Below are positions 9,838-32,785 of a DNA stretch of 32,785 nt, in pieces. Both the position numbers and the translations under genes were made by a program. The notes beneath the pieces were generated by a model. It was not told the origin of the DNA. It ran no database searches and worked only from the letters and a program-made list of their open reading frames with translations. Position 1 is the stretch's first letter; each line of letters begins with the position of its first letter. The DNA is from Dimargaris cristalligena. Lineage: Eukaryota. The stretch is taken from contig ML002416.1 of the NCBI GenBank assembly GCA_003614675.1, positions 1-32,785 of the forward strand, written 5' to 3'.

Positions 9838-9862
9838 CTCTCTCTCTCTCTCTCTCTCTCTC
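9838..9862 (+). repeat. (CT)12 microsatellite in the pyrimidine-rich region upstream of the uL23m gene
   Basis: CTCTCT... run ending about 60 bp before ATG 9922. Confidence 0.9.
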
Positions 9863-9921
9863 GCTCTTTCAACTATCCCGCCTTTATATTAGATATATAT
9901 TTAAATATTTACCTTGCCACC

Positions 9922-10992: not shown

Positions 10993-11469
10993 CTAACCGG
11001 ACTTGAACAATAATACGGCCAGATTGCCGATATAAAAATAGATAAAATGCCGGGTTTCTAAGCGTGGTTTAAAAGAGAGATATTAGGGATAGTGGCGTAT
11101 AGAGTCAGGTAAGGGTTAGTGTAGGACTTGGTGATTGGAAACACCCGAAGGTTAATAAGGTGGTCAGTCGAGTAATTGGAATGGTGTGCCTAAAATAATA
11201 TAATTTAGTTGGCGTTAGCAAGATAATCCAAAAGACATGCTTTCTCGTAACTTACCGTGGGTCACATAGGAGCCGAAACTCTTGCCGACGATACAGTGCC
11301 AGGTGGGCTGGAATTTTTTGTCAAATTCGCGCTTAATCTGGGCGGCAATATCCTTTTCCATGGTGAACTGTTCAACGGCACGGTTAGTGATTTCCAGGGC
11401 ATCGGACTGCATCTCTTGGGACATATCCACGCTCTTGACGGTGACGGTGCGATCGGTTGAGCTACCCAT
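10993..11469 (-). CDS. DYN2: Dynein light chain LC8, two coding exons (11469-11256, 11057-10993), 92 aa
   Basis: Exon 1 [20 protein letters not shown]...[34 protein letters not shown], exon 2 [21 protein letters not shown]. Spliced length 279 nt. Classic LC8 signature WHCIVGxxFGSYVTHET. Confidence 0.95.
11058..11255 (-). other. 198-bp spliceosomal intron in the dynein light chain gene
   Basis: GTAAGT donor, CTAAT branch site (+strand ATTAG near 11082-11086) and TAG acceptor. Its removal restores the conserved HETxHFIYF. Confidence 0.92.
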
Positions 11470-14820: not shown

Positions 14821-15229
14821 AATGCAATATGTGTGGAGGGCAAGTGAAAGAGACGGAGGAAAGAAGGGGAAAAGTCGCCAAGGGGGATGTAGAGTTCAAA
14901 GGATGGAGGGAGAGAGAGAGAAAGGGAGTAGTGATATATATCCCTGAGATCGAATCGATGACACGAGAAAAGGATAAACGGGAGAGTGTGGTGGATTCAC
15001 TCTGCTACAATGGCTAAGTGATATGCGTGGGTCAGGAGCCGAATAGGTCTTGACAGGAGCTGCAAGCGGATAGGCGTGGGGAATTAGTGATGAAGATTAC
15101 ACCAGTGATGAAGGAAGGGGAGGAGAGACACAATGTGGGGAATGGATGATAAGGGGTGGTAGAACGAAATCAGGGGAATAGGAGGGTCCGGGAGAAAGGC
15201 AGCTTGGGAGGGAGGGAGGGCCCGGCGCC

Positions 15230-15250
15230 TATATATATATATATATATAT
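15230..15250. repeat. (TA)10 microsatellite
   Basis: TATATATATATATATATATAT run about 410 bp upstream of the perilipin ATG. Confidence 0.9.
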
Positions 15251-17253: not shown

Positions 17254-17389
17254 GGGAGAAGTTCTTCCAAGCTGTATAACGAAAAATCCATTAGATTTGG
17301 CCAATATTACTAGTTAAAAATACATTTCCCATATATTTTCCCATACACGTATAATGTAAACCCTTATATAGCTGGGCCGAATTTCACCC
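17254..17389. mobile_element. 136-bp MITE-like element, copy B
   Basis: GGGAGAAGTTC...GGGCCGAATTTCACCC flanked by ATAT. Gap-free alignment to copy A, about 33 mismatches in 136 by hand count. Confidence 0.75.
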
Positions 17390-17589
17390 ATATGCTTTAT
17401 GTTAAACTCTTACTCAATTATTATCAATATAGTACCGACTGGTATGTCATAATTGGCTATCAGCGATAGATGTGAAATTCAGCCCATGAGTAATCCAACC
17501 TACATATACCTAGTCCCATTAATGAGGTTCGGAAATTCCACCACCGAAGGATCCCCTTCCTTCACCCATTCCCGCCACTTAATTCATAT

Positions 17590-17725
17590 GGGAAAGGTTC
17601 AACCTGGCTGTATAACAATAAATCCGTTGGATGAGGCAAAAGCCACTGGTTAATAATGGATCTCTCATATATTTGCCCGTACACATATCATCCAAAACCT
17701 TATACAGCTGCACTGAATTCCACCC
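17590..17725. mobile_element. 136-bp MITE-like element, copy C
   Basis: GGGAAAGGTTCAACC...GAATTCCACCC flanked by ATAT. Gap-free alignment to copy A, about 31 mismatches in 136 by hand count. Confidence 0.75.
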
Positions 17726-19269
17726 ATATATTCATTATCCCACCTTCATTATTATCACCCATTGCGTCCTACTGTCTAGAAGCATCCTCCAACATGTTCT
17801 GTGCTGTTCGAAATGCTTATCCTCAGTCTGCTCAGCTATATAAAGCCGAGCCCATTCCTATACGTATTCTTTAGTTATTTAGAGACTATAATACCCCCTT
17901 TTATTAGCTAACCCGACCAATGGGTGTCGGCTCTATTTGTTATCTATAAAGCGCCCCTCGCAACATAGGCATGTGTGTTTTTTCCTGTTATTTGTTCTAG
18001 GTATAGGCATTCAATTCATTATTAGTATTATTGCCCACAACTCCTACAATTTTTTCCATCATCATGTATGAGTTCTAGTGCCCTCGATTTCATATTCTGC
18101 ATTCTTAGGCCTAATGCGTCGAAGTAGGAGGAGTCCAGAACTGCCTTAGCTTGGTATTGCTCATGAAGTGTGTTATTTGTTTGGGAGTTGTTCTATTAAT
18201 AATCAATCAATTTCCCAGTAATATACATAGTTTTCTAATTCATTTATAAAATAACTACATTCTCTCGATCACTTATCCGCAATCTTCGTACAAATTATAA
18301 ACGGTAAATTCGGAATTCACTACCATTGGCCACTAAAACTTACTCAACTCGGTCTTCGTAACCCCCTCCCACCCCCTTAACCAAGTCCCATGATATCGTT
18401 ACTATATAAGTATACTTCTCATTGCCTATAGGGATTTAGTCGCCTTTAGATTGGCGATAATTCTCGGATTCAGCGCTCCCGCTTAATTAAGTGTTTGATG
18501 GGGATAGTGCATGGTCTATTGGGGGAAATAGTTCTCAACCAAAAGTGGCTTGTTTATCTCTGGCATGGGATAAGGCTATAGGCGAATGGCTTCGCAGCAG
18601 CCCCTGCAAGGAAAAGAGAATAGACGAGTAATTAGACCCCCTAATTGATCATCATTCAATAAGCTGTCGCCGTATCATTTCGACCTAGTGAACCTCGTAG
18701 CATCTCATACATGTGGTGATGGCTGACCCCCTTCAACCGGTATCGTGCATTGAGTCATAACCAAAGCAATGTGGTGCCTTGTGCCGCCGATTCAATGCTG
18801 TATTCGATGGCCCCTTAAGGTACGGGATATACCCCATATTCACAAATAATGCAGGGGCGCGTGATTGGTTTTATCTACCTAGAATACAGTAAGGAAGTAA
18901 TGTGGCGAGTTACCCTAGTGCATGCGACTATGTAATACCTGTTTTTAACAGGTTATACTGACTTAGTCGAAAATGGTCAGCCGAAAGCAGCCTTAGACAG
19001 GGACCCAACGGTTCCATTACCAATCAACCCTCTCGGATTTCAGAGAAATTTGTCCCCCTGAAAACCAGCAAGGTGGGTTCGCATTTACAGAAAGATATAA
19101 GAAGCTCCTAACTGGGCTGCCGTCGAAACCACCTTCAAGTTTTCATCATATCTTCACTGCATTCAGAGTTGGTATAGCCTAAACAAGATTCCATTTACAT
19201 TAAGATTGACATTATTACAATTAATTAACTCTATTATTTGACCTGCTTACCAAGTCCCAGTTACCCACG

Positions 19270-20040
19270 ATGATCGGAGCCGCCCTGAACACCCCTTCCA
19301 CAGCCCTGCGTTCGTCAGTGGTCCCGGCAAATGATCAGACCACAATCAATTTACCTCTTAGCAAACCCCGCGTCCCTGGTCTAGGTTATGCCGCATGGGG
19401 ATGCGACCTCTTCTTACCCGATCTGAAGCTGTTCCGTCGCGATGACTTCGATCAAATCGGCCAGCTAGCTACTGGTATTATCCTGAGTCGATACTGCCGC
19501 CAGCCTGCAGTTGCTTTTTCCTCCTGGCGAGACCCAATTGGGTCAAGTGATATTATTGGCCAGCCTCAAAAAAATCTGCGATTGATTCTTGTGGAGGTAA
19601 GCCCCGATACCCCTGTATCCGCCGCCATTCTGCAAAACCACGCGCTCAGTAGGTTCCTGGATTTGTCTGACCCGGTGGCCGGGGTTATCCTCCACACCAG
19701 TGCAGGTGGTCCCCCTGTGGCACATCCCATGCCTGAACCCGACAACAACTACTATCAGTCCAAGGAGGTCAAGGCGGTCGCACATATCGTTGATCTATTG
19801 ACCAGTAGTACCGCCCACATAGTTGTCAGTTGCACACTAAATCAGGGGCACATCCAGATCACAGTAACCCATAGTCGGGTCCAGTACCGCGACTCAGCCG
19901 TGGCCGAGTTCACTGATCAGTTTGTAACCATCTTTGCGGCCATTGTCCAGGCCTTAAAGTGTGATCAGCCCATCCTTATACGTAATATCCCATGGGTAAG
20001 TGGCCGGGAACTGGATCGCCTCATGGACTTCTCCCTCATG
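19270..20040 (+). other. NRPS N-terminal partial (C-terminal lobe) condensation-like domain
   Basis: IILSRYCRQPAVAF (~19477) parallels LLLSRYTDQPDVIFG in the intact C domain (~30247). No HHxxxDG. Boundaries approximate. Confidence 0.55.
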
Positions 20041-23000
20041 AACAAACCGATCCAGGGAATCGGTCCCCCTATCCATAAACTATTCCGTGATTGCACCCTA
20101 CGATATGCCGACCATATTGCCTTGGTCCACGGCCCTGACGAATGGACCTACGCTCAGCTCGACTCTGCTAGTTCCGAACTGGCCCGGGCCCTAGTAGATC
20201 AGTACGGGGCTCGTCCCGAAGTACGGTTTGCATTACTTATCCCCAAGTCAATCGCTTACACCATGGCGATTCTAGCGGTGCTTAAGTCCGGTGCCGCTTA
20301 CATACCCCTCGACCCCGACTATCCCCCCGATCGAATCCAGTTTGTTCTAGAGGATAGCAACGCGTCCCTGCTAATTGCCGCCGAATCAGTCCTCAGGAAT
20401 GTGTCGGGCCAGCTCAAGATATCCGCAATAACTGTGGATCCATTTGTCCGGCAGCAAGCAACTGCGGAGCTATCGGACTTCCAGCCGTTCCCTTCATCCC
20501 CTGGTGATCTGGCCTACGTTATTTATACCTCGGGAACGGCTGGCCGTCCCAAAGGTGTCTTGGTTGAGCACCGGGGAGTATCAAATTTTTCCATCGATCC
20601 GTACTTGCGCGAAGAGTACGGTCCAGGACATCGGGTTTACCAGGCCGCATCTGTCGCTTTTGATGGCATTCTCGTGAATACGTTTCGCACCCTATGTGCC
20701 GGCGGTACGCTTATTATACCCACCGAAAACCTACTCGAAGACCTGCAAACTATTCATACAGGCTTATTCTTGTCCTCATTTTTATCTCGACTGGACCCGG
20801 CAAGTTTTCCTAATATGCAAGCGATCGCGGTCGGCGGAGAGCCCCTGCTACCCGAACAGCAGGCCCAGTGGGCACCTCACTGTATTTTAGCCAATCATTA
20901 CGGTCCAACGGAAGCGACAGTTTACAGTAATTTGGCAGTGATAGGGCCGGATGACGATATCACGATTGGTAGGCCGATCCGTAATGTCTTTAATTTGGTG
21001 GTCGACGAGGAACTTCGACTAGTGCCGGTAGGGGTTCCTGGTGAACTGCTCATCGGTGGAGTAGGCGTCGCACGGGGCTATCAGAACCTACCCGAGCTGA
21101 CCGCCACAAAATTTATACCAAACCCACTGGGGAAAGGCCGGGTATACCGCACCGGGGATTACGTCCGATGGCTCCCAAATGGATCACTTGAATTTCTCGG
21201 TCGCATCGATAATCAAATCAAACTACGTGGATATCGAATTGAAATCGAAGAGATTGAGTATGTCGCGAGCCAATACCCAGGGGTTAAACAAAGCGTGGCG
21301 GTTGTGGTTCAGGATGCTTTGGTTCTCTACGCTAGTCCTGCAACCCTTGATCCATCTGGTTTGTTGAACTATTTAAGTGACCACCTATCCAAGCCAATGG
21401 TACCCGAGTTAGTGGTGCCTGTGTTGGACTTTAAGACCACCGGAGTAGGAAAACTCGATCGCCGGTCTCTACCCTCTGTCGATCATTTGTTATCAAAGCA
21501 CACGTCGACTTCCGGGTCTAGGCCAATTACCAATGGTATATTGTCAAAAGCCGAGGAGAGCCTCCGGCGGATCTGGGGCCAGGTTTTACAGCAAGACCCT
21601 GGTCAGTTTGATGCCACAGACCACTTCTTCAGAGTTGGCGGGGACTCAATTTCGGCTATTCTCTTGGTATCCAAGTGTCGACAATCGGGTTATCAACTGA
21701 CTGTGCCTCTGATATACCAGTATCCCGAGCTACGCCGGATGGCCCAGCAGGTACAGCAACCTACCTCCATGGACGGTAATACCGGCGTCCAATTTAATCT
21801 GTCTGATACCGAGTCTCAAGAAATTTCAGAGGAGCTAGTGCGGCGAGGTATTTTACCATCCGATGTTGAGGTGCTACTCCCCTGTATTGGGGTACAGGGT
21901 GGCCTATTGACTGGTCTGGGAGTGGACCCTTCTGCTTATACGGTCCAAATATCCATAAAAATTGGCGGACCCCTTGATTTCTCCAGATTGATTCAGGCCT
22001 GGAATGCCGTTGCCAAACAACATACTCCACTTCGCACTATGTTTGTGGAGTCATCCACCAAGCGGTCGCAGGGCTTCGTCCAGGCCGTGGTTCGCTCACT
22101 CTCGAATGTTTGGACCCTTGGGAATAAGCCTCTGGCCTGTCTTGATAGCTTTTTGGCCAACAATTTACGGCGTGGTTTCGTTCTAAAAGAGCTCATGGTC
22201 CGGAATTTTGTGTTTCCTACCGCTGATAGTCAGCTGTATGATGTTATTATTTCCGCCCACCACTCGCTCCTAGACGGCTGGTCGATGCCCCTTCTTCTCC
22301 AGGCTTGGATGGCTGCCTACCACCACCCTCAGTTACTGGTTCCATCGCCATTAACTAGCTTCCCGGCGGTTGTGGATTACGTGAACCAGATGGACACCGC
22401 CAAAGCAAGCAATTTTTGGGCCACCTACCTTCGAGATGCCCATTCCACACCCGCACCCATGCTCTTCCCGGGGCTCAGCGGAGCTTCGGGGTCGGCGATC
22501 TACTATGCCAGTATTGGTATCCCCAAGGCCCACATGCTGCAGTTTTCTCAAAGCCGCGGTATCACTCTGGCCACCTTATTTCGGGTTGCCTATGCCCTGG
22601 TTCTGGGCCGCTTGCTCGACCAGGATGATGTCGTATTCGGGGTGACCCTATCTGGTCGAAACCTAGATTTATTAGGTATGGATCAGGTAATAGGCCCCTG
22701 TATCAACACACTGCCCTTCCGGGTATATTTAGATCAGTCACCTATCCACTCTTGGTTACAGTCGCTTCATCATGCCCAGACGAGCATGCTCCAATTTGAG
22801 CACTCGTCCTTATCTGATATTACACGGTGGGCTTCAGCCGGTCAACGCGGACCGCTCTTCCATACACTTTTGGGCTTTGAGAATTACGCCAGCTACGTAG
22901 CTGAACCCTCTCACCATTTGATCCTGTCCGAACTCCGGGTTCACGAGTCGACGGAGTATCCACTAACCGCGGATTTCATAGTCCAGTCCACCGCTGTCCA

Positions 23001-26000
23001 GGCCAAGATACTCTATAGCACATCGGCCTACTCGGAGGAAGCTATCCGGCACTTAGTCAGAATGATCGAAACCGCTGTTGGGCAGATTTTATCGGCCCAG
23101 TCCGGGACCACTGTAGACCAATTGGTGCTCACAAGGTCACCATTGGCCCGCCCCATTACACATGGGCAAGAGTCAATTAGCACTGTATCTACTTCGCCTT
23201 TTCCATCGCTGGCCGAAACCTGGGATAGTATATTATCGGACTATCCCGACCATTTAGCCTACATTTCGAAAGAACTTAGTCTATCATTTAGTCAAGTTGG
23301 CCAATTGGCGGACGTCCTTGCCTTTCGATCTGGCCAAGTTCTCAAATCTTCCTACCCGTCAATCGTGGCCCTTGTGGATAGCGTAGAACATTTATTGATA
23401 TGCTTAGTAAGCGCATTCAAGATGGGGGCCCGCCTCACACTTTTGGCTCCCCCATTCACTCTTGACCAATTGCTGACATATACCAAATTGTCCGCGAGCC
23501 AGGCTGTATGGCTACCATCTACTAAAGTGGAAGAAATCCGCCCGTTCCTGAATGATGTTGTGAAACTAATTCCTTTACCAGACGCCGTTGAAGCGCACAT
23601 CGACAAAACCCGTGCGTCTCGCCGATTCAAGCCCTCCGCCGTTTCGAAGAACTTTGCCCTATCTTTTATGTCACAAAGGAATTCGAATAGTCCGGCACTG
23701 TCGACTATCCATGATTCGTGTATCCAGCTCACCCTCGCGTCAACCCAGTCATATATTTCAAAAAACGACCGTGTGATTATTGACCGTTCTCTGGCCCTCG
23801 ATTCCAGCCCAGCTGCCTGGCTGATCCTCTCGTGTCTGTTGTCACACAAAGTAATTCTTGCCCCGGACTCGCCCCTTGGCGTGGATATCAAGTCACCGAC
23901 GTGCCATGTCATGGCGGCTAATACTCGCTTAGATGGCTTGGATGGCTGTAATAGGCTGATTCTTTACGATCTAGACCAGGCTCATTGGTACGACTCCATC
24001 AACTTTGCGGAATCCACTGATACCTGTATCTCATTCATTGGAACTGTATTCCAGGGCCACCAACAGGTCACAAAGGAGCAGTTGATATCCCGATGTTTAC
24101 CCACCATCGATACAACTCCCCTCTTCTATTCACTAGGTGTGCTTGATTGCCATGACCGTCTCTGTCCCCCGGGGGTCGTTGGTCGCCTAGCGTTCTTTGA
24201 AATTTCGTCGTCCAAGTATTCAGCCCCTACGAAGCACCCGGTTCTTGGTTATCGAGATAACAACAACGGGATACGTATGCTTGGTCCTATCACTCAGAGG
24301 GAGGTTGTCGAGGGCCAACAAATACACTTCGGTATACTGACTCAGGCCCTAGCAGGGGCAGGTGCCCTTTTCCCGCGATGTCTAATTCTACCCGACAACC
24401 GATTAGTTGCTCTGGTGGCCAATACCACCGAAGGGGAGCTGATTCAACTAAAGACCTCCATGGTGTCTCCTGACATCCCGTCTGCTCTAGTACCGTCGGC
24501 CATTATTTCGACCCACGCCTTCCCCCACGTAGCCAACCTAGCTGACCGCCTTCTGTCGCATTTTGCCCAAGCATATCTTGCCACTCTTCCCTTTTACAAT
24601 GATCATTCAATGTCTAAACTCGAATGGTGGCTCACTACAGTGGTCAACGAACTGCATATCTCGTTAAAGCCATCCGCCGATTACTCCACCAGTCCCTTAC
24701 TTCGGTCCTCATCGGAGGCTACATTGGCCCAACTTGAATTGTTAAGGCATCGTATCTACTCGAAATTTAACGCTAGTCTTACCATGGGTGACTTGGTTAA
24801 ACACCCCGAACTCCGAAAACTGACTTCCATTCTATCTGAAAGAATTGATCAAAGTCTAGTTGAGCACTCTGGCGAAGTTAGCACTAACGGGGCCGCTTTT
24901 TATGCCCCAAATTCTCTGCCTTTATACCTTCGGACTATTCCAGTTACTGACCGTCAGCAGCAAATATGGTCCCTTGGCCGAATGGGTACGAATTCGGCGG
25001 GTTTCTATCACCAATGCCTGATAACCTCAGAAGCCCCAATCCAGCTCAAAAGCATTCAACAAGCTATCGACCAATTAGCATCCGCATTCGAGTCCCTTCG
25101 ATTCCGGTTTAACTCTGCGCAAGGCACCCTAACTTGCCACGTATTACCCCATGTGCAAATTGGAATCACTGAGCACTGGCTCCCCAATTCTCAGTCACTT
25201 GTGGTCGATGACCTATTATCGGGTGAGGTCAAACTCGACCTTGATCGCGGGGTCCTCAGCCAAGTGGATCTGTATCACTCTTCCATAACCATTAAGGGTG
25301 GAATAGCATCGGCCCTATGTCTTCAAGTACATGATATTGCCGTGGATAGTTCCCTATTCGACCGGATTGTAAAGTATATTGTTACTGGACTTCATGGAAT
25401 ACCCCAGAATAACTCCAGTCAACGGGTGACAAGGCCGAACTCCTGTCATCGTGACGCTAACGACACTGACTCCAGTTACTGGAGAAGCCTTCTCCGCGAT
25501 CCACCAACCGAGCTTCATTTGCCCTTCGATCATCCCCGGCCCCTTCTTCCAAGTTTCCAACATGCCACCGTTGGCCTTAAGCTAGGATCTGGGTTAATGG
25601 CATCCCTGTTTAATTGTAAATCAGCTAATCCGTTGGCCCAAGGTGACATTTGGTTGGCCCTCTTCGCCTCGTTTCTCAGGCGGCTAACGGGCCAGGATGA
25701 TATTATCATCGATTATAGCAGCGTGGAAGACCGATCCGATGATCAAATAGTCGGAGCCGCCGAGCAGTCGGATACCCATACACCGATCCGTTGTTCAGGA
25801 AATTGGCCAGCGCACATCTCTCAACTGGCCGAGCATCTTAGTCTTCAGCGTCGTCAGTCCATGAGATATCCGACCCCATCGGTTAATTTATATTCCACAC
25901 TCGGAGATCACCTTGGTCTCATCCGACTATTGGGCTTAGCTCGAGTTCGGGTCTCCATTTTCTCCGACTTTTATGAGAAACTTGACTACAATGTCACCCG

Positions 26001-29000
26001 GGTTATATATCCCAGCACGGCACAGTCGCTATTTACTTACGACCTGGAATTGGTTATCCGAGGAATAGCCTCCGCTCGATATTGTGATCTTCGCTTCAAT
26101 TCAGATGTGTTGGAGAGTTCAACCGCCGAACGCTTGATACGTAACTTCCTCCACTATGCCCAAGGTTGCTTCTACCAGGATCAGCCATGGACCAGAACTT
26201 CAATAGTTTCCCCTGACGAATATCGCACCTTGATTGATAATTTTGCATTCGGGGGCTTACTGACCACCGAATGTCCCATGACGCCTCCTGCCGATGTTCT
26301 ACGCCATTTCTTCAGAATTGCTACATTGTATCCCGATCGCGCTGCTACTGAGATATTAGGCAAATCTTGCACCTATATTGAACTCGTTGATCGTATCAGC
26401 TCAGTGGCCGCCGGACTGCGCGCGGCCCAAATCCAGCCGGGAGACAAAATTGCTGTCATCGTTGCTAATCATCCAGACACCGTGGTTGGGATGTTAGCAA
26501 CATGGGTCGTAGGAGCTGTATATGTACCTGTGGATTGTACGCTGCCAGTCAAACGGCAGACTTATATAATTGATGTTGCTGGCTGTAGGATGGTGGTGAA
26601 CACTTCAAACACACCTACCCAGTTGACCAATGTAGTGGCTCTTTCTGAGTTATTCGGGCACGATAATACTACCAACAATGAGCCTAATTGTCATCCAAAC
26701 CGCCCTGATGACTTGGCCTACATTATTTTTACATCAGGGTCAACAGGTTTGCCCAAGGGGGTTATGGTTTTGCGCAGCAACCTCGATTACATAATATTTA
26801 ACCCCGTTTTCCAAGACCTTCGAGTGGTGGGTCAGCGTGTCATGATGGGGTCCTCCCCTGGGTTCGATGCCTTCATCATCAATTCCCTCGTTACACTATG
26901 TGGTGGGTCGACGTTGGTGTTTTACCATGACAATTTGGCTGATACTCTACGCCAGGTGGACCAAACCTGGTTGGTGCCGTCGGTTATTAATCGGCTCAAC
27001 CCTTCCAACTACCCCAATCTGAAGAAACTGTGTCTGGTGGGCGAGCCTCTCAGCCGCGAGCTAGTTGACAAGTGGTCGGCGGTTCCCGGTATCTATAATG
27101 GCTATGGACCCACCGAGACTACCATCATTAGCCATTTTACCCGAGTCCCACCCACTGGGCCAATCACCATTGGCCCTCCAGTTCCCAATTACGAGTGTTA
27201 CATTCTGGATAGTCAATTGCAGCTGGTACCTATCGGGGCTATCGGCGAAATCTGCATCGGCGGAGTTGGTGTCAGCCTTGGCTACATTAACCGGCCTGAC
27301 CTCAATCCCATCAAATTCATTGACAACCCCTTCACAGGTCGGGGTCGACTGTATCGTTCCGGCGATTTGGGCCGCTGGCTACCTGATGGACGGGTTGAGT
27401 GTGTGGGGCGCATGGACAGCCAGATCAAACTCCGGGGATTCAGGATTGAGCTGAACGAGATTCGTAGTGTTCTGCTGCGCCAACCCGGGGTCCGAGACTG
27501 TACCGTTTTCGTCCACGACCAATTCTTGGTCAGCTACGTGTTCCCTGAATCCGCTGCTAATAATGAAGTTTTGCATAACGCTGTAGCCAATCATTTGCCA
27601 CTTTATATGGTACCCAGCTACTTCATGGGGCTGCCAACGGTGCCCCTCACTATCAACGGCAAATGTGACACCAAATTCCTTCTAGACCATTTCACCGAGT
27701 ATCTGACGACCCAACGGAGGCAGGATCCAACAGACTCCTCATTAACCCTGTCAAGCCGGCCACTGGGAGCCCTAACGCAGGCGCTGGTAGATGTACTTGG
27801 ACTGGCTCCTGAAGAGATTAATCTGCAATTATCCTTCGTCAAACTTGGTGGGGACTCTATTTCAGCTATTCAAGTATCATCAAAGTGTCGCCAACTCGGA
27901 TACACCCTACCCACCTCTATGATTTTGCGATCGAAGACCTTGTCTGATGTTGTTGGTAATATGAAAGTCATCGATCCCACCACAGCTCGAAAGGACCCCC
28001 ACAAAACAATATCATATCACACCACATTCCCACTCACCCCAATTCAGCAGTGGTTCTTTGACCACCCCTGGCGTAACCCCCATCATTTCAATCAATCGTT
28101 TGCCCTTGAATTGACTCGACCGTTATCTGTAACTCAGATTACGTCCGCCCTTCTTAGCCTGATCAACCACCACAATTTATTGCGCTGTCAGTTCACCGAG
28201 GACGGGTCTAATTCACCCAGCCGGTGGTCTCAACGTATATTGCCGCCGCTTGCGACTTTACCCATTCCCGTGCTGGAAGCCATTGTTCCTCTGTCTGGCT
28301 GCCCTATTCAGTTTAAATTGATCCAGTCTTCGCTTGACATTTCGCAGGGTCACCACTTGGCTGCGGGTCTCATTACTGTTTTGGATAATAATGTCAGCTC
28401 ATCCACCGATTCGGTTTCGCACCCCCCGGTTCCATTCCAAACAACTCCTAGGCAGGTGTTATTCTTAACGATCCACCACCTGGTAGTAGATTTGGTATCG
28501 TGGTCAATTCTATTAGAGGATCTGGCACAACTTCTAGATGGTCAAAATCCAGCACCACAGTATCTCTCGTTTGCAACTTGGGCAGCAGAATTATCTGGTT
28601 GGGCCAAACAATCTATCCCTGGGACCGAACAGCCATTGACTTCAATGCCATTGTCATCATATTTGCCACTCGCCAGTCCCGATAACCTGGTATTCAATAT
28701 TCAGGGCAATTCAAAGTGCCTGTCGGTCACCTTGGACAGTATCATTTCAGATGAACTGCTTGGGGTCGATACCCACCTTATCCAGCCTCTGGAACTAATG
28801 CTCGCCGGCCTGTTCCAGGCCCTATACTCCTTGACCCAAGCGCCAACTATAACCATTTTCAATGAATCTCATGGCCGTCATTCGTGGGATACCAACCTGG
28901 ACCCCAGTCGTACGGTGGGCTGGTTTACTACTCTCCTACCATGCCAAACACAGGCCAGCGCGGGTACAACGCCCTTGGATTTCCTTAAATCGGCCAAACA

Positions 29001-32000
29001 GGCCCACCGCTCGGCGAGTGGTACCCACGGGCTTCACCAGAGTCTTCAAAAATGGCTAAACTGCACTGATGTTGTACCCTCCTCTCACCAATCCTACTCA
29101 CCAATCGACGTTGCATTCAACTACCTTGGGCATACGGTGGATCACGGTACATTGACCCAACAAGGCCGTGCCCCCTGGTTACCTTGTCATGAACTGATGT
29201 CTGATATGGCTGTCTGCGATGCGAATGAGCTCCGTACACAGCTAATCGAGATTATTGGTTTACCAACCTCGGATGGTCTAGTATTCACAGTTCGTTATTG
29301 TCCACAGGTCATAGCGACAGGTAATATTGAAGTCCTTTTGAACCGCTTCCACAGCTCACTAGTTAGTCTGGTACACTATGTTAACCAATCCCCCAGTCCC
29401 TCTCTTTGGACCCCGATGGACTTCCCTGATTTACAGACCACTTTGCCGGAACTGGTCAAACTCGAAGCCGAGCTTATCACCGTTGGCCTTTCCGGGAACG
29501 ATGTCGAAGACATCTACCCCATGCTGCCCATGCAGCAGGGCATGTGGACAGCCACGGCCAAGGACCCCTCCGAATACCTGGTTCAGCTGGCCTTCACTGT
29601 AACTGGCATTTCGAACCTCGACCAACTACAGGTGGCCACCCGGGCAGTTGTTGGCGACTACACCATTTTGCGCACAATGTTTATTACTTCATGGAGCAAT
29701 TCCCATTGTCAAGGTGTCCAAGTAGTGATCCGAGAACCACGGTTCGGTTGGCATGTCATTAACGAGTGGTCTGATGTGGATTCCATTAGTGAACCCGACT
29801 TTATGCTGTCCAACAAAAGACGTGGTTTCGGGCCCGGCGAACCCCTTCTCCGAGCCCATGTTAAGCAGCTGTCAGTAAATACATTCAGGTATTTATTGAC
29901 CATCCACCATGCACTAATTGACGGGTGGTCCATTGGTATTCTAGTAGGTCGGCTTCGGGCCCACCTTCAAAATGATACTGAAATCCTGCTTGTCCGCCCC
30001 CCTGCATTCCGCAATTATGTAGCACATATGCATATCTCCGACAAACAAAGTGCAAAATCGTTCTGGTCGGAGTACCTGCGAGGTGTCGAGCAGCCCACTA
30101 AAATAGAGCTTCCCAAGCCCACTTGTAAGCCAGATTCCCCCAGGGCCGAATTGAAAATGACTCTTTTCGAGGATGCTGATACTATCACTCAACTCGCTCA
30201 CCATATGGGGATCACTCCCTATGTTCTTATCAAGGCCGCCTGGGCCCTGCTTTTGAGTCGCTACACTGACCAGCCCGATGTCATTTTCGGCAACACTGTG
30301 TCTGGTAGAGCGCTACCCCTTGCTGATATCGAGTCCCACCTGGGATGCCTTATCAATACGGTTCCGTTTCGGGTTCGAGCTGACGAGACTATGACTGTGG
30401 CTGAGTGGGTCACTGCTATTCATAATAGTTCCCAACAGGTTGTTTCATTTGAACACCACCATATATCTGAGATCAACACATGGGTGGAAGGGGAAAATCG
30501 GCCAAGTGACTTGTTCAATACGCTAGTTGTGTACGAAAGCTACCCTAATACGGGCACGGATTGTCTTGATCACCCAGTCACTTTTACAGATACCGGGTTT
30601 CTCGAATCCAGTGACTATCCGCTAACACTAGTTGTCCAGATGGAGTGTGGCGAACTCAGTGCTTGCTTGAGCTGGAACTCTTTTCAATTTGGTCCAGTCT
30701 ATATCGACACCCTGTCCAAACATTTGTGCACCCTATTCAATGGGCTGGTCTTCGCTCTAGCCAACGCAGATGGGCAAATCCGCATACAAGATCTGGAAAT
30801 GCTTTCTCCTGAGGAGCATGAGGTAATGGTGAAGCAATTCGCATGTCCTCGTCGGACCATAGATCGCGATGCCTGTGTACCTGCGTTGTTTACTCGTTCT
30901 GTTCAGATCAGACCGAACGTTACTGCCGTGGAGTACGAAGACACCAAGTGGACTTATGCCCACTTGTACCATCAGTCACTTAGTCTCGCCCAGCAACTGC
31001 TAGACCGAGGGGTCCAGCGCGAAACTCCCATTGGCCTGCTCATTGACCGGGTACCCAGCACAATTGCAGCCTTTATGGGCTTGCAGTTGTCGGGGGCAGC
31101 TTTGATTCCCCTGGACCCCACTTTCCCTATCGAGCGCATCCAGTATATCACAGAAGACTGCGGCATTGGTCTCGTTCTTACCAATATGGCGGACCAGTCC
31201 AAACTCAATGCTATTCGCTCCACCCTCACCCAAGTCGAAATCCAACTAATCGGCCCTTGGCTTTTGCCCCTCCAACTACCCCAAGACCAGCTGCCTATCC
31301 TCCCTAATATTAGGCCCACCGACCTTTCCCATATAGTGTATACGTCTGGAACCACGGGGCGACCCAAGGGCGTTCAAATCGAACATCGCCTGATGGGCAA
31401 CTTTGTCCAGCAGTTGGAGTCAACGTATGGCATTTCCGCTGGCCTGCGCTTAATGCAGAATATGGCATTGACCTTTGACGCTGCCCTACTCGAGATATTT
31501 ACCGGCCTATGCAAGGGGGCCACCCTTGTTCTTCGGACCGATCTGTTGGATACACTGCCCAAAGTGGATGCTATATTCGCCACCCCTACTGTACTGGCCT
31601 CCCTTGACCCGGCCAAATATCCTAATCTACAAACGATCATTTCCGGTGGAGAGGCCCTTCCTCGTGAAGTAGCCAAACGCTGGGCCCGTCATTGTCGACT
31701 GTTCAATATATACGGGCCCACGGAAGTTCTGGTCTCACACACTGTCGAGTACAGCCTTGGCGATATTTTGACTATAGGTCGACCAGTTCCTAATACCCAG
31801 GGCTATATCCTCGATCGCTATTTGCGCCCCGTTCCAACTGGGGTTCGTGGTGAAATCTACGTTGGTGGCGCGCAGGTCGCACGGGGTTACGTCAACTTGC
31901 CCGACCTCAATACGGCGAGATTAATTCCTAATCCTTTTAGCGGATCAGACAATATGTATCGGACAGGAGACTCGGCCCGCTGGCTACCCAATGGTACCGT

Positions 32001-32785
32001 TGAATACTTTTCTCGTCATGACGACCAGGTAAAAATTCGCGGGCATCGTATTGAACCCCAGGAAATCGAATCTGTATTACTCAGTCATCCCGATGTACAG
32101 AGTGCCGCCGTAGTTATAGATAGTCAAAAGATTTACGCATTTGTGTGCCCTTGTTCAGTTTCCATTGGATCGGTTAAGTCACATATTGGTCGAATTCTAC
32201 CAGCGTATATGAACCCCACCACAATATTTAACCTGGATGTGTTACCCCGCAACACTAACGGCAAGACCGACAAACGTGTCCTAACCACACGTATTGCCGA
32301 GTTAACCTCAATGACTGCCGGTCGCACCATTACTGCCCCGCAGAATTCAGCCCAGGCCCTGGTTGTGGATGCCCTCAGCCAAACCTTGGGTATTCCCAGT
32401 ATCGAGATTGGTATTTACGACTCCTTTTTCCAACTCGGTGGTGACTCGATTTCGGCCATTCGCTTGTCCTCCCTCTGTCGAGACTGCGGTTTATATATTT
32501 CCATCGCCCAGGTGTTCAAGTGTAGTAATATCATCGAGCTAGCAGAGTGTGTCTCAGATTATTCCATACCTGACGGTCCGTTAGAATCCCATAGTACCAC
32601 TATTTATGAACCCTATAGCTTATTGGGCGAAATGAGCTCATCTTCCCCTGGTGTGGACTCACTCCTTCAAGAGGCCGCTTCCCAGCTCAAATTGGGCTTG
32701 GATGAAATCTCCGATATTCTACCGGTTTCGGGGCTCCAACTGGGCTTCCTCGTCAGTACCCTGAAAGACCCAAGCTCGTATATGG
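19270..32785 (+). CDS. Multimodular non-ribosomal peptide synthetase, 3'-truncated by the window (>4,500 aa, no intron needed)
   Basis: In-frame TAA at 19222, first ATG at 19270. All motifs fall in frame 1: YTSGTAGRPKG (~20524), GGDS (Ser 21646), HHSLLDG (22258), FTSGSTGLPKG (~26728), GGDS (Ser 27856), HHLVVD (28474), HHALIDG (29905), YTSGTTGRPKG (~31339), GGDS (Ser 32446). The track lists no frame-1 ORF here, consistent with no stop codon. Confidence 0.95.
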   Translation, partial: MIGAALNTPSTALRSSVVPANDQTTINLPLSKPRVPGLGYAAWGCDLFLPDLKLFRRDDFDQIGQLATGIILSRYCRQPAVAFSSWRDPIGSSDIIGQPQKNLRLILVEVSPDTPVSAAILQNHALSRFLDLSDPVAGVILHTSAGGPPVAHPMPEPDNNYYQSKEVKAVAHIVDLLTSSTAHIVVSCTLNQGHIQITVTHSRVQYRDSAVAEFTDQFVTIFAAIVQALKCDQPILIRNIPWVSGRELDRLMDFSLMNKPIQGIGPPIHKLFRDCTLRYADHIALVHGPDEWTYAQLDSASSELARALVDQYGARPEVRFALLIPKSIAYTMAILAVLKSGAAYIPLDPDYPPDRIQFVLEDSNASLLIAAESVLRNVSGQLKISAITVDPFVRQQATAELSDFQPFPSSPGDLAYVIYTSGTAGRPKGVLVEHRGVSNFSIDPYLREEYGPGHRVYQAASVAFDGILVNTFRTLCAGGTLIIPTENLLEDLQTIHTGLFLSSFLSRLDPASFPNMQAIAVGGEPLLPEQQAQWAPHCILANHYGPTEATVYSNLAVIGPDDDITIGRPIRNVFNLVVDEELRLVPVGVPGELLIGGVGVARGYQNLPELTATKFIPNPLGKGRVYRTGDYVRWLPNGSLEFLGRIDNQIKLRGYRIEIEEIEYVASQYPGVKQSVAVVVQDALVLYASPATLDPSGLLNYLSDHLSKPMVPELVVPVLDFKTTGVGKLDRRSLPSVDHLLSKHTSTSGSRPITNGILSKAEESLRRIWGQVLQQDPGQFDATDHFFRVGGDSISAILLVSKCRQSGYQLTVPLIYQYPELRRMAQQVQQPTSMDGNTGVQFNLSDTESQEISEELVRRGILPSDVEVLLPCIGVQGGLLTGLGVDPSAYTVQISIKIGGPLDFSRLIQAWNAVAKQHTPLRTMFVESSTKRSQGFVQAVVRSLSNVWTLGNKPLACLDSFLANNLRRGFVLKELMVRNFVFPTADSQLYDVIISAHHSLLDGWSMPLLLQAWMAAYHHPQLLVPSPLTSFPAVVDYVNQMDTAKASNFWATYLRDAHSTPAPMLFPGLSGASGSAIYYASIGIPKAHMLQFSQSRGITLATLFRVAYALVLGRLLDQDDVVFGVTLSGRNLDLLGMDQVIGPCINTLPFRVYLDQSPIHSWLQSLHHAQTSMLQFEHSSLSDITRWASAGQRGPLFHTLLGFENYASYVAEPSHHLILSELRVHESTEYPLTADFIVQSTAVQAKILYSTSAYSEEAIRHLVRMIETAVGQILSAQSGTTVDQLVLTRSPLARPITHGQESISTVSTSPFPSLAETWDSILSDYPDHLAYISKELSLSFSQVGQLADVLAFRSGQVLKSSYPSIVALVDSVEHLLICLVSAFKMGARLTLLAPPFTLDQLLTYTKLSASQAVWLPSTKVEEIRPFLNDVVKLIPLPDAVEAHIDKTRASRRFKPSAVSKNFALSFMSQRNSNSPALSTIHDSCIQLTLASTQSYISKNDRVIIDRSLALDSSPAAWLILSCLLSHKVILAPDSPLGVDIKSPTCHVMAANTRLDGLDGCNRLILYDLDQAHWYDSINFAESTDTCISFIGTVFQGHQQVTKEQLISRCLPTIDTTPLFYSLGVLDCHDRLCPPGVVGRLAFFEISSSKYSAPTKHPVLGYRDNNNGIRMLGPITQREVVEGQQIHFGILTQALAGAGALFPRCLILPDNRLVALVANTTEGELIQLKTSMVSPDIPSALVPSAIISTHAFPHVANLADRLLSHFAQAYLATLPFYNDHSMSKLEWWLTTVVNELHISLKPSADYSTSPLLRSSSEATLAQLELLRHRIYSKFNASLTMGDLVKHPELRKLTSILSERIDQSLVEHSGEVSTNGAAFYAPNSLPLYLRTIPVTDRQQQIWSLGRMGTNSAGFYHQCLITSEAPIQLKSIQQAIDQLASAFESLRFRFNSAQGTLTCHVLPHVQIGITEHWLPNSQSLVVDDLLSGEVKLDLDRGVLSQVDLYHSSITIKGGIASALCLQVHDIAVDSSLFDRIVKYIVTGLHGIPQNNSSQRVTRPNSCHRDANDTDSSYWRSLLRDPPTELHLPFDHPRPLLPSFQHATVGLKLGSGLMASLFNCKSANPLAQGDIWLALFASFLRRLTGQDDIIIDYSSVEDRSDDQIVGAAEQSDTHTPIRCSGNWPAHISQLAEHLSLQRRQSMRYPTPSVNLYSTLGDHLGLIRLLGLARVRVSIFSDFYEKLDYNVTRVIYPSTAQSLFTYDLELVIRGIASARYCDLRFNSDVLESSTAERLIRNFLHYAQGCFYQDQPWTRTSIVSPDEYRTLIDNFAFGGLLTTECPMTPPADVLRHFFRIATLYPDRAATEILGKSCTYIELVDRISSVAAGLRAAQIQPGDKIAVIVANHPDTVVGMLATWVVGAVYVPVDCTLPVKRQTYIIDVAGCRMVVNTSNTPTQLTNVVALSELFGHDNTTNNEPNCHPNRPDDLAYIIFTSGSTGLPKGVMVLRSNLDYIIFNPVFQDLRVVGQRVMMGSSPGFDAFIINSLVTLCGGSTLVFYHDNLADTLRQVDQTWLVPSVINRLNPSNYPNLKKLCLVGEPLSRELVDKWSAVPGIYNGYGPTETTIISHFTRVPPTGPITIGPPVPNYECYILDSQLQLVPIGAIGEICIGGVGVSLGYINRPDLNPIKFIDNPFTGRGRLYRSGDLGRWLPDGRVECVGRMDSQIKLRGFRIELNEIRSVLLRQPGVRDCTVFVHDQFLVSYVFPESAANNEVLHNAVANHLPLYMVPSYFMGLPTVPLTINGKCDTKFLLDHFTEYLTTQRRQDPTDSSLTLSSRPLGALTQALVDVLGLAPEEINLQLSFVKLGGDSISAIQVSSKCRQLGYTLPTSMILRSKTLSDVVGNMKVIDPTTARKDPHKTISYHTTFPLTPIQQWFFDHPWRNPHHFNQSFALELTRPLSVTQITSALLSLINHHNLLRCQFTEDGSNSPSRWSQRILPPLATLPIPVLEAIVPLSGCPIQFKLIQSSLDISQGHHLAAGLITVLDNNVSSSTDSVSHPPVPFQTTPRQVLFLTIHHLVVDLVSWSILLEDLAQLLDGQNPAPQYLSFATWAAELSGWAKQSIPGTEQPLTSMPLSSYLPLASPDNLVFNIQGNSKCLSVTLDSIISDELLGVDTHLIQPLELMLAGLFQALYSLTQAPTITIFNESHGRHSWDTNLDPSRTVGWFTTLLPCQTQASAGTTPLDFLKSAKQAHRSASGTHGLHQSLQKWLNCTDVVPSSHQSYSPIDVAFNYLGHTVDHGTLTQQGRAPWLPCHELMSDMAVCDANELRTQLIEIIGLPTSDGLVFTVRYCPQVIATGNIEVLLNRFHSSLVSLVHYVNQSPSPSLWTPMDFPDLQTTLPELVKLEAELITVGLSGNDVEDIYPMLPMQQGMWTATAKDPSEYLVQLAFTVTGISNLDQLQVATRAVVGDYTILRTMFITSWSNSHCQGVQVVIREPRFGWHVINEWSDVDSISEPDFMLSNKRRGFGPGEPLLRAHVKQLSVNTFRYLLTIHHALIDGWSIGILVGRLRAHLQNDTEILLVRPPAFRNYVAHMHISDKQSAKSFWSEYLRGVEQPTKIELPKPTCKPDSPRAELKMTLFEDADTITQLAHHMGITPYVLIKAAWALLLSRYTDQPDVIFGNTVSGRALPLADIESHLGCLINTVPFRVRADETMTVAEWVTAIHNSSQQVVSFEHHHISEINTWVEGENRPSDLFNTLVVYESYPNTGTDCLDHPVTFTDTGFLESSDYPLTLVVQMECGELSACLSWNSFQFGPVYIDTLSKHLCTLFNGLVFALANADGQIRIQDLEMLSPEEHEVMVKQFACPRRTIDRDACVPALFTRSVQIRPNVTAVEYEDTKWTYAHLYHQSLSLAQQLLDRGVQRETPIGLLIDRVPSTIAAFMGLQLSGAALIPLDPTFPIERIQYITEDCGIGLVLTNMADQSKLNAIRSTLTQVEIQLIGPWLLPLQLPQDQLPILPNIRPTDLSHIVYTSGTTGRPKGVQIEHRLMGNFVQQLESTYGISAGLRLMQNMALTFDAALLEIFTGLCKGATLVLRTDLLDTLPKVDAIFATPTVLASLDPAKYPNLQTIISGGEALPREVAKRWARHCRLFNIYGPTEVLVSHTVEYSLGDILTIGRPVPNTQGYILDRYLRPVPTGVRGEIYVGGAQVARGYVNLPDLNTARLIPNPFSGSDNMYRTGDSARWLPNGTVEYFSRHDDQVKIRGHRIEPQEIESVLLSHPDVQSAAVVIDSQKIYAFVCPCSVSIGSVKSHIGRILPAYMNPTTIFNLDVLPRNTNGKTDKRVLTTRIAELTSMTAGRTITAPQNSAQALVVDALSQTLGIPSIEIGIYDSFFQLGGDSISAIRLSSLCRDCGLYISIAQVFKCSNIIELAECVSDYSIPDGPLESHSTTIYEPYSLLGEMSSSSPGVDSLLQEAASQLKLGLDEISDILPVSGLQLGFLVSTLKDPSSYM
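20060..23110 (+). other. NRPS module 1: A1 (~20060-21480), T1 (~21550-21760), C1 (~21860-23110), all motifs intact
   Basis: WTYAQL, LKSGAAYIPLDP, YTSGTAGRPKG, NHYGPTE, GELLIGGVGVARGY, YRTGD, GRIDNQIKLRGYRIE, GKLDR; FFRVGGDSI; HHSLLDGWS. Boundaries approximate. Confidence 0.9.
23200..26200 (+). other. Degenerate NRPS block: A-like (~23200-24560), T-like (~24600-24850), C-like (~24930-26200)
   Basis: Eroded motifs in correct order and spacing: LSFSQV, FKMGARLTLLAP, FALSFMSQRNSNSP (P-loop lost), CPPGVVGRL, GPITQREVVEGQQIHFG, no A10 Lys. The T-like segment lacks GGxS. The C-like segment has PVTDRQQQIW, HDIAVDS and YWRSLL..LPFDHPRP. Confidence 0.8.
26290..30780 (+). other. NRPS module 3: A3 (~26290-27680), T3 (~27760-27960), epimerisation domain (~28030-29380), C (~29500-30780)
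   Basis: A motifs intact (FTSGSTGLPKG, NGYGPTE, YRSGD, NGK); FVKLGGDSISAI; E motifs PLTPIQQWFF, HHLVVDLVSWSILLEDL, ESHGR, RTVGWFT, FNYLG; C with EDIYPMLPMQQGM and HHALIDGWS. Confidence 0.9.
30860..32785 (+). other. NRPS module 4: A4 (~30860-32290), T4 (~32340-32560), start of the next C domain (~32700 to end)
   Basis: WTYAHL, YTSGTTGRPKG, NIYGPTE, YRTGD, QVKIRGHRIE, NGK; FFQLGGDSISAI; DILPVSGLQLGFL at the window end. Confidence 0.9.

Follow-up and report, generated by a model that had tools for sequence, protein, structure and literature searches.

The window, a stretch of 32,785 nucleotides that makes up one whole contig, comes from the mycoparasitic fungus Dimargaris cristalligena. Its forward strand carries an NRPS gene at 19270..32784, in one uninterrupted frame of 4505 codons whose 3' end is open. 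Domains were assigned by running Pfam on the 4505-aa product cut into ten pieces, and they follow the order halfC-A1-T1-C1-[dA-dT-dC]-A3-T3-E-C-A4-T4-C, where the brackets enclose the degenerate block considered here (Table 1). Past T3, the Pfam scores are 100 bits for E, 180 for C, 239 for A4 and 43 for T4. The N-terminal halfC has no Pfam match in its 260 aa; hhalign, applied to the N-termini of the family, aligns it with active C domains at 97.4% probability (E 9.3e-12) over C columns 202-438 of 441. With its E domains and its lack of terminal T-C repeats, this architecture is not that of a siderophore synthetase. In the 19 kb upstream of the NRPS there are only genes of housekeeping type (ribosomal L23, dynein light chain, perilipin-like), none of them for a tailoring enzyme, and no P450 was found among the ten upstream frames scanned.

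Table 1. Domains of the NRPS from its N-terminus to T3, with the evidence for each
Feature	Position (nt)	Strand	Evidence
halfC: N-terminal 260 aa, C-terminal lobe remnant of a condensation domain before A1	19270..20049	+	hhalign
A1: active adenylation domain	20050..21546	+	Pfam AMP-binding 223 bits; P-loop TSGTAGRPKG at aa 420
T1: carrier domain	21547..21759	+	Pfam PP-binding 47.7 bits; GGDSIS nt 21637-21654
C1: intact condensation domain immediately 5' of the dead block	21847..23166	+	Pfam Condensation 141 bits; HHSLLDG nt 22258-22278
dA core: degenerate adenylation N-terminal subdomain	23167..24249	+	hhalign, neighbour clusters, P-loop remnant; A5/A6 regions with deletions
dAsub: degenerate adenylation C-terminal subdomain	24250..24639	+	hhalign; AlphaFold/Foldseek; A10 Lys replaced by Ala
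dT: carrier-like helical domain	24640..24909	+	Thr1818 at the phosphopantetheine Ser position; hhalign, HMMER, AlphaFold model
dC: condensation fold	24910..26274	+	Pfam, hhalign, VIA-align; HDIAVDS instead of HHxxxDG
A3: next active adenylation domain	26275..27759	+	Pfam AMP-binding 228 bits + AMP-binding_C; TSGSTGLPKG at aa 2488
T3: carrier, presumed acceptor for C1	27772..27984	+	Pfam PP-binding 43.7 bits; GGDSIS nt 27847-27864

The block covers aa 1300-2335 (nt 23167-26274), about 1036 residues that can be aligned over their full length with A, T and C domains. An earlier note had described a catalytically dead A-T-C block at 23200-26200, which is the right location with slightly too narrow a span; the motifs it quoted, FMSQRNSNSP, SEATL and HDIAVDS, all lie exactly at the positions given. 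Motif mapping and MAFFT alignment, for which the references were the active A, T and C domains found elsewhere in the gene, likewise bear out that the block is an A-T-C unit one module long from which all three sets of catalytic residues are gone, and that its removal leaves a normal domain order. Adenylation motifs are named A3 (the P-loop), A5 (YGPTE), A7 (YRTGD) and A10 (with its Lys). In dA, the P-loop remnant FMSQRNSNSP (aa 1466-1475, nt 23665-23694) stands opposite YTSGTAGRPKG, the A5 site is a 6-residue deletion and the A7 site reads YRD next to a 7-residue deletion; in dAsub, the A10 site reads NLADR (nt 24535-24549) for GKLDR. The dT segment has SEATL at aa 1815-1819, with SEAT opposite GGDS and Thr1818 at nt 24721-24723, and dC has HDIAVDS (aa 2021-2027, nt 25330-25350). 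dC runs into A3 through a normal C-A linker, VSPDEYRTLIDNFA (nt 26206-26247). The block is not spliced out in the deposited gene model, where aa 1-2405 form a single exon.

Profile searches locate the origin of the block. The sole Pfam match in aa 1290-1800 is AMP-binding (PF00501; profile 7-123), at 13.0 bits against a cut-off of 29.9 (E 0.044); aa 1760-1900 give no PP-binding (PF00550) match at E<=10; and aa 1888-2148 match Condensation (PF00668; profile 3-275) at 66.1 bits against a cut-off of 30.6. The earlier note had counted low-scoring hits to all three families in this order as support: the adenylation hit is indeed weak and below threshold, the condensation hit is above its cut-off, and the carrier hit did not appear. 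No other Pfam family accounts for the block. In profile-profile comparison of the block family with the active domains of the same family (hhalign), the dA core aligns with A at 97.7% probability (E 1.5e-12), columns 14-343 being colinear with 14-342; dAsub aligns with A columns 383-497 at 95.4% (E 1.8e-8) and dC with C at 98.6% (E 1.1e-15). For dT the probability is just 61.9% (E 7.6e-5, 31 columns), with the register correct, and HMMER places the family consensus 'eat' of dT opposite the GDS of LgrA GGDS, colinear with the LgrA PCP. Finally, AMP-binding occurs in 30/30 neighbour clusters of dA in a language-model atlas (score 0.97). The block is derived from A, T and C domains, its resemblance to them being more than chance, and the adenylation, carrier and condensation catalytic residues have all gone from it.

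Structure prediction suggests that the folds outlived the chemistry. An AlphaFold model of aa 1661-2340 (dAsub-dT-dC) reached pLDDT 75.4 and pTM 0.73 from an input alignment of 12 rows, two of them canonical sequences from the same gene, which may bias the model toward canonical folds. Most 10-residue blocks of dAsub have pLDDT 72-92, the first two being lower. In the dT model, helices span residues 123-137, 159-173, 179-184 and 188-205, covered by blocks of pLDDT 81-92; Thr1818 (model residue 158) comes immediately before helix 159-173, and the blocks over this and the later helices have pLDDT 84-91. Foldseek aligns the model with LgrA Asub-PCP-C (E 2.6e-25, about 700 aligned columns), and dAsub matches the Asub of LgrA and of DhbF, with about 700 columns aligned to their Asub-PCP-C. 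By VIA-align, dC matches solved C domains with Z 29.3-28 and rmsd 3.0-3.8 Å over 381-409 residues, and the teicoplanin X-domain (4tx2/4tx3) with Z 27.1 and rmsd 3.9-4.1 Å over 403-406 residues. The Asub, PCP and C folds of the block are thus predicted to be kept.

Other genes carry the block as well. A phmmer search with aa 1290-1890 against 1.84 billion representatives (E<=0.001) matched 17 proteins, 12 of them from Dimargaritales, and hmmscan places the dead block in about 18 proteins, always between C1 and the following active A where the protein includes both. Paralogues and other genera hold it at the same position, as the earlier note had proposed to check, and the species concerned are four: D. 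cristalligena, D. verticillata, Dispira parvispora and Tieghemiomyces parasiticus. The retention of a near-full-length fold, which that note had stressed, is true of this gene but not of all the family: 3/11 clusters (P0091, P0099/P0109 and P0104) have no dA core, and in P0092 it is partially deleted. dAsub-dT-dC is present wherever the region is covered, with the deposited models of P0004, P0105 and P0090 lacking pieces of dT or dC; the gaps in dC amount to 68 aa in P0004, 83 aa including the HD motif in P0105, and most of the domain in P0090. Should these gaps reflect genuine deletions instead of falsely predicted introns, the block would sometimes do without an intact dC fold.

Loss of the catalytic motifs extends across the family: in the 18 proteins scanned, neither [TS]SG[ST][TA]GxPKG nor GG[DHN]S[IL] occurs within the block. 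The carrier position of dT is T, S, P or R, and it is Ser in P0092, P0093, P0104 and possibly P0095, so that dT may be loaded in some members. In the C3 motif of dC, the first His is present in 12/12 covering sequences, whereas every one of the 12 has the second replaced, by D, E, Q or P. It could be argued that dC still catalyses condensation with a non-canonical active site, joining T1 or dT to T3, C1 having some other role: dC is the natural neighbour of T3, and its first His, its C2-motif Arg and its general fold are preserved. We consider this very improbable, however, since the replacement of the second His is not itself conserved, the motif Asp is variable as well, C1 retains a perfect motif, and the second His contributes to catalysis in C-type domains that have been studied (PMC10510592).

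A different function would be docking, the dead block having acquired a new non-catalytic job as a platform for a trans-acting tailoring enzyme or synthetase subunit, or as an oligomerisation element. There is a model for this in the X-domain, which is catalytically inactive and recruits oxygenases (PMC10510592), and whose match to dC, at Z 27.1, comes to about 2 Z units or less below those of the top catalytic C domains. What survives in every member covering the region is dAsub-dT-dC, not the dA core, and dAsub and the linker bear family-specific conserved patches (CPPG, (F/Y)PH(L/V), AxAYL and WL). Most block residues shared across the family are, however, those conserved in canonical domains too, and the upstream genes described above offer no partner. 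Moreover, the block lies inside the protein, with C before it and A after it, whereas the X-domain belongs to the last NRPS module, before TE. Docking appears unlikely on these grounds.

The rate at which the block changes bears on whether it is maintained at all. Between genera, identity is 29-34% for dAsub and 22-27% for dC, against 46-48% for active A1. IQ-TREE partition rates, taken from gap-free columns only (266 columns for dC) and hence favouring conserved sites, are 1.53 for the dA core, 1.20 for dAsub, 1.29 for dT and 1.29 for dC, compared with 0.66 for A1, 0.56 for T1, 0.89 for C1 and 0.87 for A3; the block evolves about 1.4-2.7x faster than the active domains, a rate that counts as intermediate. 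The gamma alpha lies at 2.2-2.5 for the block, against 1.0-1.4 for active domains. A neutral remnant awaiting deletion, open only because downstream modules need the reading frame, would fit this pattern, faster and more even across sites (rates 1.2-1.5 vs 0.56-0.89, alpha about 2.3 vs about 1.1), with its dA core lost or eroded in several copies and pieces of dC absent from the P0004, P0105 and P0090 models. Yet the block stays recognisable across genera at the identities given, with HMM domain E-values of about 1e-11 to 1e-48 for members from other genera, it occupies the same position in every member and it is confidently predicted to fold canonically. Against the paralogue P0003 it is 54.2% identical (562/1036) with a single 1-residue indel. 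Loss of the dA core also proves that in-frame deletion is possible, and dAsub-dT-dC stayed nonetheless. Neutral persistence therefore has little to recommend it, and the block looks like a selected non-catalytic spacer rather than a decaying leftover. It would be under relaxed but real purifying selection, an argument drawn from protein rates and indels only.

On balance, we lean slightly towards an ancient fossil module, held in frame as a non-catalytic structural element and bypassed along the path T1 -> C1 -> T3. By the time the Dimargaritales genera diverged, an ordinary A-T-C unit would already have lost its capacity for adenylation, carrier function and condensation. dC would have been retained as the C-type partner of A3 in the usual C-A platform, and the same logic of a C-type partner would explain the half C domain retained before A1; dAsub-dT would serve as a tether keeping C1 close to the dC-A3 platform. 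A1 would load T1 and A3 would load T3, while the intact C1 would join the donor on T1 to the acceptor on T3. One difficulty is that T3 should dock on its neighbour dC, and the scheme presupposes that it can reach the acceptor site of C1. If the block is bypassed, the peptide should be one residue shorter than the count of A-like domains suggests.

C1 is the pivot of this scheme. It is active-looking, judging by an HHxxxDG motif in 15/15 family members covering that site, and for this reason the reach of C1 across the block to T3, that is built-in skipping, seems the most economical of the three mechanisms put forward earlier (skipping, separate assembly lines or a structural spacer). C1 domains also form a group of their own, with 35-77% mutual identity and 27-33% identity to the remaining C domains in those proteins, which would allow for a special acceptor. 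The gene might then encode two separate lines, A1-T1-(E)-C1 delivering to a free or side-chain nucleophile in the manner of VibH, whose acceptor is a small-molecule amine (PMC10510592), and A3 starting its own chain, with the block as physical link. The fusion and its order are, however, kept in four species; A3 comes after a C-type domain and the usual C-A linker, as in an elongation module; and hmmscan places an E domain between T1 and C1 in most family members, as expected for the donor to a normal elongation C. Two independent lines are accordingly quite improbable.

A bolder reading, which we regard as possible but doubtful, is that the Dimargaritales NRPS clade carries a selected, triply dead A-T-C 'pseudo-module' of about 1000 residues, kept as architecture, that either hard-wires a long-range condensation by C1 on T3 across it or acts as a docking platform. 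Were it true, it would add a hitherto undescribed class of non-catalytic NRPS element, and would show that a whole module's length of protein can lie between a C domain and its acceptor module.

Known systems offer partial precedents. For Dimargaritales NRPSs, antiSMASH gave almost no known-cluster matches, according to PMC9866270. A degenerate A domain without several core motifs occurs in the ferrichrome synthetases of fungi (S. pombe Sib1 module 2, O. olearius Fso1 A3) and resembles the present case in being kept in frame within a fungal NRPS; the adjoining T and C are functional there and are charged by another A (PMC2644324). In the Dimargaris block the carrier Ser and the catalytic second His have gone too, and the whole module is dead. 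Natural module skipping is described in the myxochromide S synthetase, where CP4 is inactive, with GGNPS for GGHSL, and cannot take the phosphopantetheine arm, so that a whole in-frame module of about 1000 residues is bypassed (PMC6180311). dT in this gene similarly has no carrier Ser at the site. The myxochromide case is bacterial, has been seen in particular pathway types (S-type, D-subtype I) and involves mutation of the carrier core only (PMC6180311); the block in four fungal species has A, T and C all degenerate, and its skipping is inferred. The glycopeptide X-domain (Tcp12; PDB 4TX2, 4TX3) shares with dC a C fold without condensation catalytic residues, and dC matches it no better than it matches catalytic C domains. 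dC lies between a dead carrier and active A3 with no P450 or partner gene in the upstream frames, whereas the X-domain, catalytically inactive, has a non-catalytic role in the recruitment of P450s (PMC10510592). Other silent NRPS parts, the inactive E domain of LgrA and the pseudo-Asub of StsA, are non-catalytic and retained as well, but these are single domains or subdomains (PMC10510592); in the Dimargaris block, three consecutive domains spanning about 1036 residues are silent together.

The window, which is an entire 32,785-base contig of the zygomycete mycoparasite Dimargaris cristalligena, ends in a single NRPS frame of 4505 codons, whose product is 100% identical to that deposited, as partial, for BJ085DRAFT_40295 (P0002). 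Pfam searches on ten overlapping pieces, combined with HMMs made from domains of the gene itself, gave the order: a 260-residue N-terminal region, A1, T1, C1, the block, A3, T3, E, C, A4, T4 and the start of a further C domain. The block consists of a dead adenylation domain (dA, comprising a core and the subdomain dAsub), a dead carrier (dT) and a dead condensation domain (dC). DNA contigs from four sequencing runs of two studies cover positions 22500-27000, and two of the four span them in one piece with no differences and no gaps; as the assembly may have been built from these runs, this agreement serves as a consistency check only.

The deposited model P0002 excises three in-frame, stop-free GT...AG segments, which are very likely false introns. 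The model of P0003, a D. cristalligena paralogue, is likewise without T3, and its fifth A domain (aa 4854-5262), with an alignment gap at the A6-A7 region and two separate HMM hits, points either to a further false intron or to damage in a second A domain. Ten frames scanned over positions 1-19000 were of housekeeping type only; they included no tailoring enzyme, transporter or PPTase, so that no gene cluster is visible upstream.

Coordinates of features in the window (nucleotides)
Feature	Position	Strand	Remark
AA9-like match	4262-5356		very weak; upstream frame
Ribosomal protein L23	9754-10404	+	upstream frame
Dynein light chain	11215-11697	-	upstream frame
Perilipin-like protein	13687-14895	-	upstream frame
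NRPS open frame	19270 to window end	+	single frame
Half C domain	19270-20049	+	260 residues before A1
Block (dA-dT-dC)	about 23167-26274		about aa 1300-2335
dA P-loop remnant	23665-23694		FMSQRNSNSP
dT carrier position	24721-24723		Thr1818
dC active-site remnant	25330-25350		HDIAVDS
P0002 'intron' 1	26485-26622		138 nt; conserved part of A3, aa 2406-2451
P0002 'intron' 2	27787-28047		261 nt; T3 carrier including GGDSIS
P0002 'intron' 3	28393-28704		312 nt; HHxxxD stretch of E domain

The dead A-T-C block, picked out in an earlier note from the sequence alone, is confirmed. All three motifs quoted there lie at the positions it gave, and over its full length the block aligns colinearly with the active A, T and C domains of the gene. 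Remnants of motifs A1, A2, A8 and A9 are visible in dA, and the key adenylation residues are lost as claimed: the P-loop is destroyed, A5, A6 and A7 carry deletions, and the A10 lysine has become alanine (NLADR). The dT segment reads SEAT where GGDS is expected, while dC, with its altered HHxxxDG, ends in the usual C-A linker (VSPDEYRTLIDNFA), followed by A3. In Pfam, the block gave a sub-threshold hit to AMP-binding (13 bits, E 0.044), a hit to Condensation that is significant but partial (66 bits, profile positions 3-275) and none to PP-binding. A different functional domain hidden there, also raised in the note, was ruled out, nothing else scoring at E<=10 in Pfam; a DUF1372 match (16.9 bits, below the cut-off of 25) was regarded as noise. 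When profiles of the block family were compared with those of the active domains in the same proteins, the dA core matched A (probability 97.7%, E 1.5e-12), dAsub matched A (95.4%, E 1.8e-8), dC matched C (98.6%, E 1.1e-15) and dT matched T (61.9%, E 7.6e-5, over 31 columns). Language-model neighbours of dA belonged to AMP-binding clusters in 30 of 30 cases.

All three domains of the block are inactivated: it is an ancient A-T-C module whose place is conserved in four species. A first, word-indexed search, limited to proteins of similar length, found it in P0003 (54% identity, 100% of the query) and in a second D. cristalligena paralogue, P0004 (52%, 78% of the query). An exhaustive phmmer search of 1.84 billion cluster representatives with aa 1290-1890 returned only 17 proteins at E<=0.001, twelve of them from the Dimargaritales D. 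cristalligena, Dimargaris verticillata, Dispira parvispora and Tieghemiomyces parasiticus. One of these twelve, P0102, was excluded because the match is to an ordinary active A domain. We also set aside P0096, P0098, P0100, P0101 and P0103, bacterial proteins among them, in which only short parts of dA matched, as would be expected of ordinary A domains; P0100 and P0103 additionally gave weak dC-profile matches. With cluster mates included, 18 family proteins from the four species were scanned, and paralogues and related genomes do keep the block. The order (half C)-A-T-(E)-C1-[dA-dT-dC]-A-T-... recurs wherever both flanks are present, which places the inactivation before the split of the genera.

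All 18 proteins lack P-loop and GGxS(I/L) motifs within the block. Thr occupies the carrier position in six (the window gene, P0003, P0004, P0105, P0090 and P0094); P0092, P0093 and P0104 have Ser there, P0091 has Pro, P0097 has Arg, and P0095 is ambiguous. A Ser or Thr capping helix 2 is common at this site, and in P0093 and P0104 the next residue is Pro. In dC, the first His is retained in 12 of 12 sequences and the second replaced in all 12, by D (3), E (1), Q (6) or P (2). With so variable a second position, it seems very improbable that dC is an active condensation catalyst with a non-canonical site. Immediately before the block, C1 shows an HHxxxDG motif in all 15 members covering the site. 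T1 and C1 are separated by an E domain in most members (P0004, P0105, P0089, P0090, P0091, P0093, P0095, P0107, P0108 and P0109) but not in the window gene (aa 830-860), P0003 and P0104. C1 of the window gene and P0003 is about 55% identical to that of the E-bearing D. cristalligena paralogues, and A1 about 75%, a sequence pattern suggesting that C1 was retuned after loss of the E domain.

Compared with P0003, the active domains of the window gene are 76% (A1), 76% (T1), 78% (C1), 74% (A3) and 84% (A4) identical, and those of the block 54.5% (dA), 45% (dT) and 56% (dC); the block as a whole shares 562 of 1036 residues with P0003, and its only indel is one residue long. Between genera, identity is 46-48% for A1 and 42-43% for A3, and 23% for the dA core, 29-34% for dAsub and 22-27% for dC. 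An IQ-TREE partition analysis of six proteins, on gap-free columns only and hence favouring conserved sites, gave relative rates of 0.66 (A1), 0.56 (T1), 0.89 (C1) and 0.87 (A3) for active domains, and of 1.53 (dA core), 1.20 (dAsub), 1.29 (dT) and 1.29 (dC) for the block, with gamma shapes of 1.0-1.4 and 2.2-2.5, respectively. The block therefore changes about 1.4-2.7 times faster, and more evenly across sites. Judged from these protein rates, constraint on it appears relaxed, not absent. Neutral decay, to be set beside both the raised rates and the residual constraint, we consider improbable.

Retention is uneven along the block. The near-full-length fold described in the note holds for the window gene but not for the whole family. 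dAsub-dT-dC is present wherever the region is covered; the dA core is absent in 3 of the 11 clusters covering the C1-dA junction (P0091, P0099/P0109 and P0104), P0092 has lost part of it, and in Tieghemiomyces it is heavily eroded. The break in P0104 is clean, running from where C1 ends to where dAsub begins with its A8-like stretch, and so resembles a real domain deletion; the gap in P0091 could be a false intron. Gene models in the family are uneven in quality: deposited models are missing 68 aa of dC in P0004, 83 aa in P0105 and most of dC in P0090, gaps that may be either deletions or false introns, since the window gene's own model holds three evidently false in-frame introns. The P-loop remnant of P0095 from Dispira parvispora (FTTATGTPIYV, at about aa 1925-1945) is less decayed than the Dimargaris FMSQRNSNSPA, and Tieghemiomyces copies have the entire stretch deleted; the family is thus found at different stages of erosion.

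AlphaFold applied to the block in full length (1051 aa) with a 4-row alignment gave a model of pLDDT 33.8, which was discarded. A second model, of aa 1661-2340 (dAsub-dT-dC), reached pLDDT 75.4 and pTM 0.73 from a 12-row alignment, in which ten block sequences drawn from the four species were joined by two canonical Asub-T-C stretches taken from the window gene; these two may have biased it toward canonical folds. Foldseek aligned about 700 columns of this model to the Asub-PCP-C of LgrA (E 2.6e-25) and DhbF (E 5.7e-24), and aligned it also to PCP-C didomains. Thr1818 (model residue 158) immediately precedes helix 159-173, at the place of the carrier Ser in real PCPs. The Asub, PCP and C folds of the block are thus predicted to persist. 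For the C fold, VIA-align gave Z 29.3-28 (rmsd 3.0-3.8 A, 381-409 residues), and the catalytically inactive X-domain of teicoplanin synthetase scored Z 27.1; a docking platform of the X-domain kind, which this match would favour, is a rather unlikely role for the block.

A second C-type remnant stands before A1. The 260 residues there, with no Pfam match, correspond to the C-terminal lobe of a C domain (hhalign against the family's C domains, 97.4%, E 9.3e-12, columns 202-438 of 441), and such a lobe opens all ten family proteins aligned. Together with dC, this means that A1 and A3 are each preceded by a non-catalytic C-type piece and a normal linker. The C-A platform is familiar from solved NRPS modules (for a review, PMC10510592). 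In the reading we favour, A3 would have dC as its structural partner in such a platform, which would be why dC is kept, dAsub-dT would be kept as a tether, and the line would bypass the block, with condensation of the T1 donor and the T3 acceptor carried out by intact C1. Bypass over such a distance is physically plausible by analogy with myxochromide S, in which a whole module is naturally skipped because its carrier is dead (PMC6180311). To the idea of two separate assembly lines, divided at the block, we give little credence.

If the block is indeed a bypassed scaffold, standard tools would over-predict product length by one residue in the large, uncharacterised NRPS expansion of these mycoparasites. 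C-type domains would be shown to be retained for the sake of a neighbouring A domain, to which the half C before A1 also points, and NRPS engineers would have a natural example of an insert tolerated after a C domain, ahead of its acceptor module.

The available portions of the Dimargaritales genome papers describe 27 NRPS genes with modular synteny in D. cristalligena (PMC6784888), an expansion of 21 NRPS and 7 NRPS-like genes (PMC7466969) and 25-89 NRPS per species with almost no known-cluster matches (PMC9866270); those portions make no mention of a dead module. The literature searched held no description of an A-T-C unit dead in all three chemistries and conserved across species, although such architectures may already appear in Supplementary Fig. 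7 and Table 6 of Ahrendt et al. 2018, and nothing relevant to the block family was found on degenerate adenylation domains or inactive modules. Ferrichrome synthetases combine degenerate A domains with T and C that work (PMC2644324), whereas here A, T and C are all dead. Single silent domains are represented by the X-domain, by LgrA with its inactive E and by StsA with its pseudo-Asub (PMC10510592), in contrast to a complete A-T-C unit. What goes beyond the silent single domains and occasional module skipping known in NRPSs, within the literature searched, is a complete, triply dead A-T-C unit at the same place in four species of one order.
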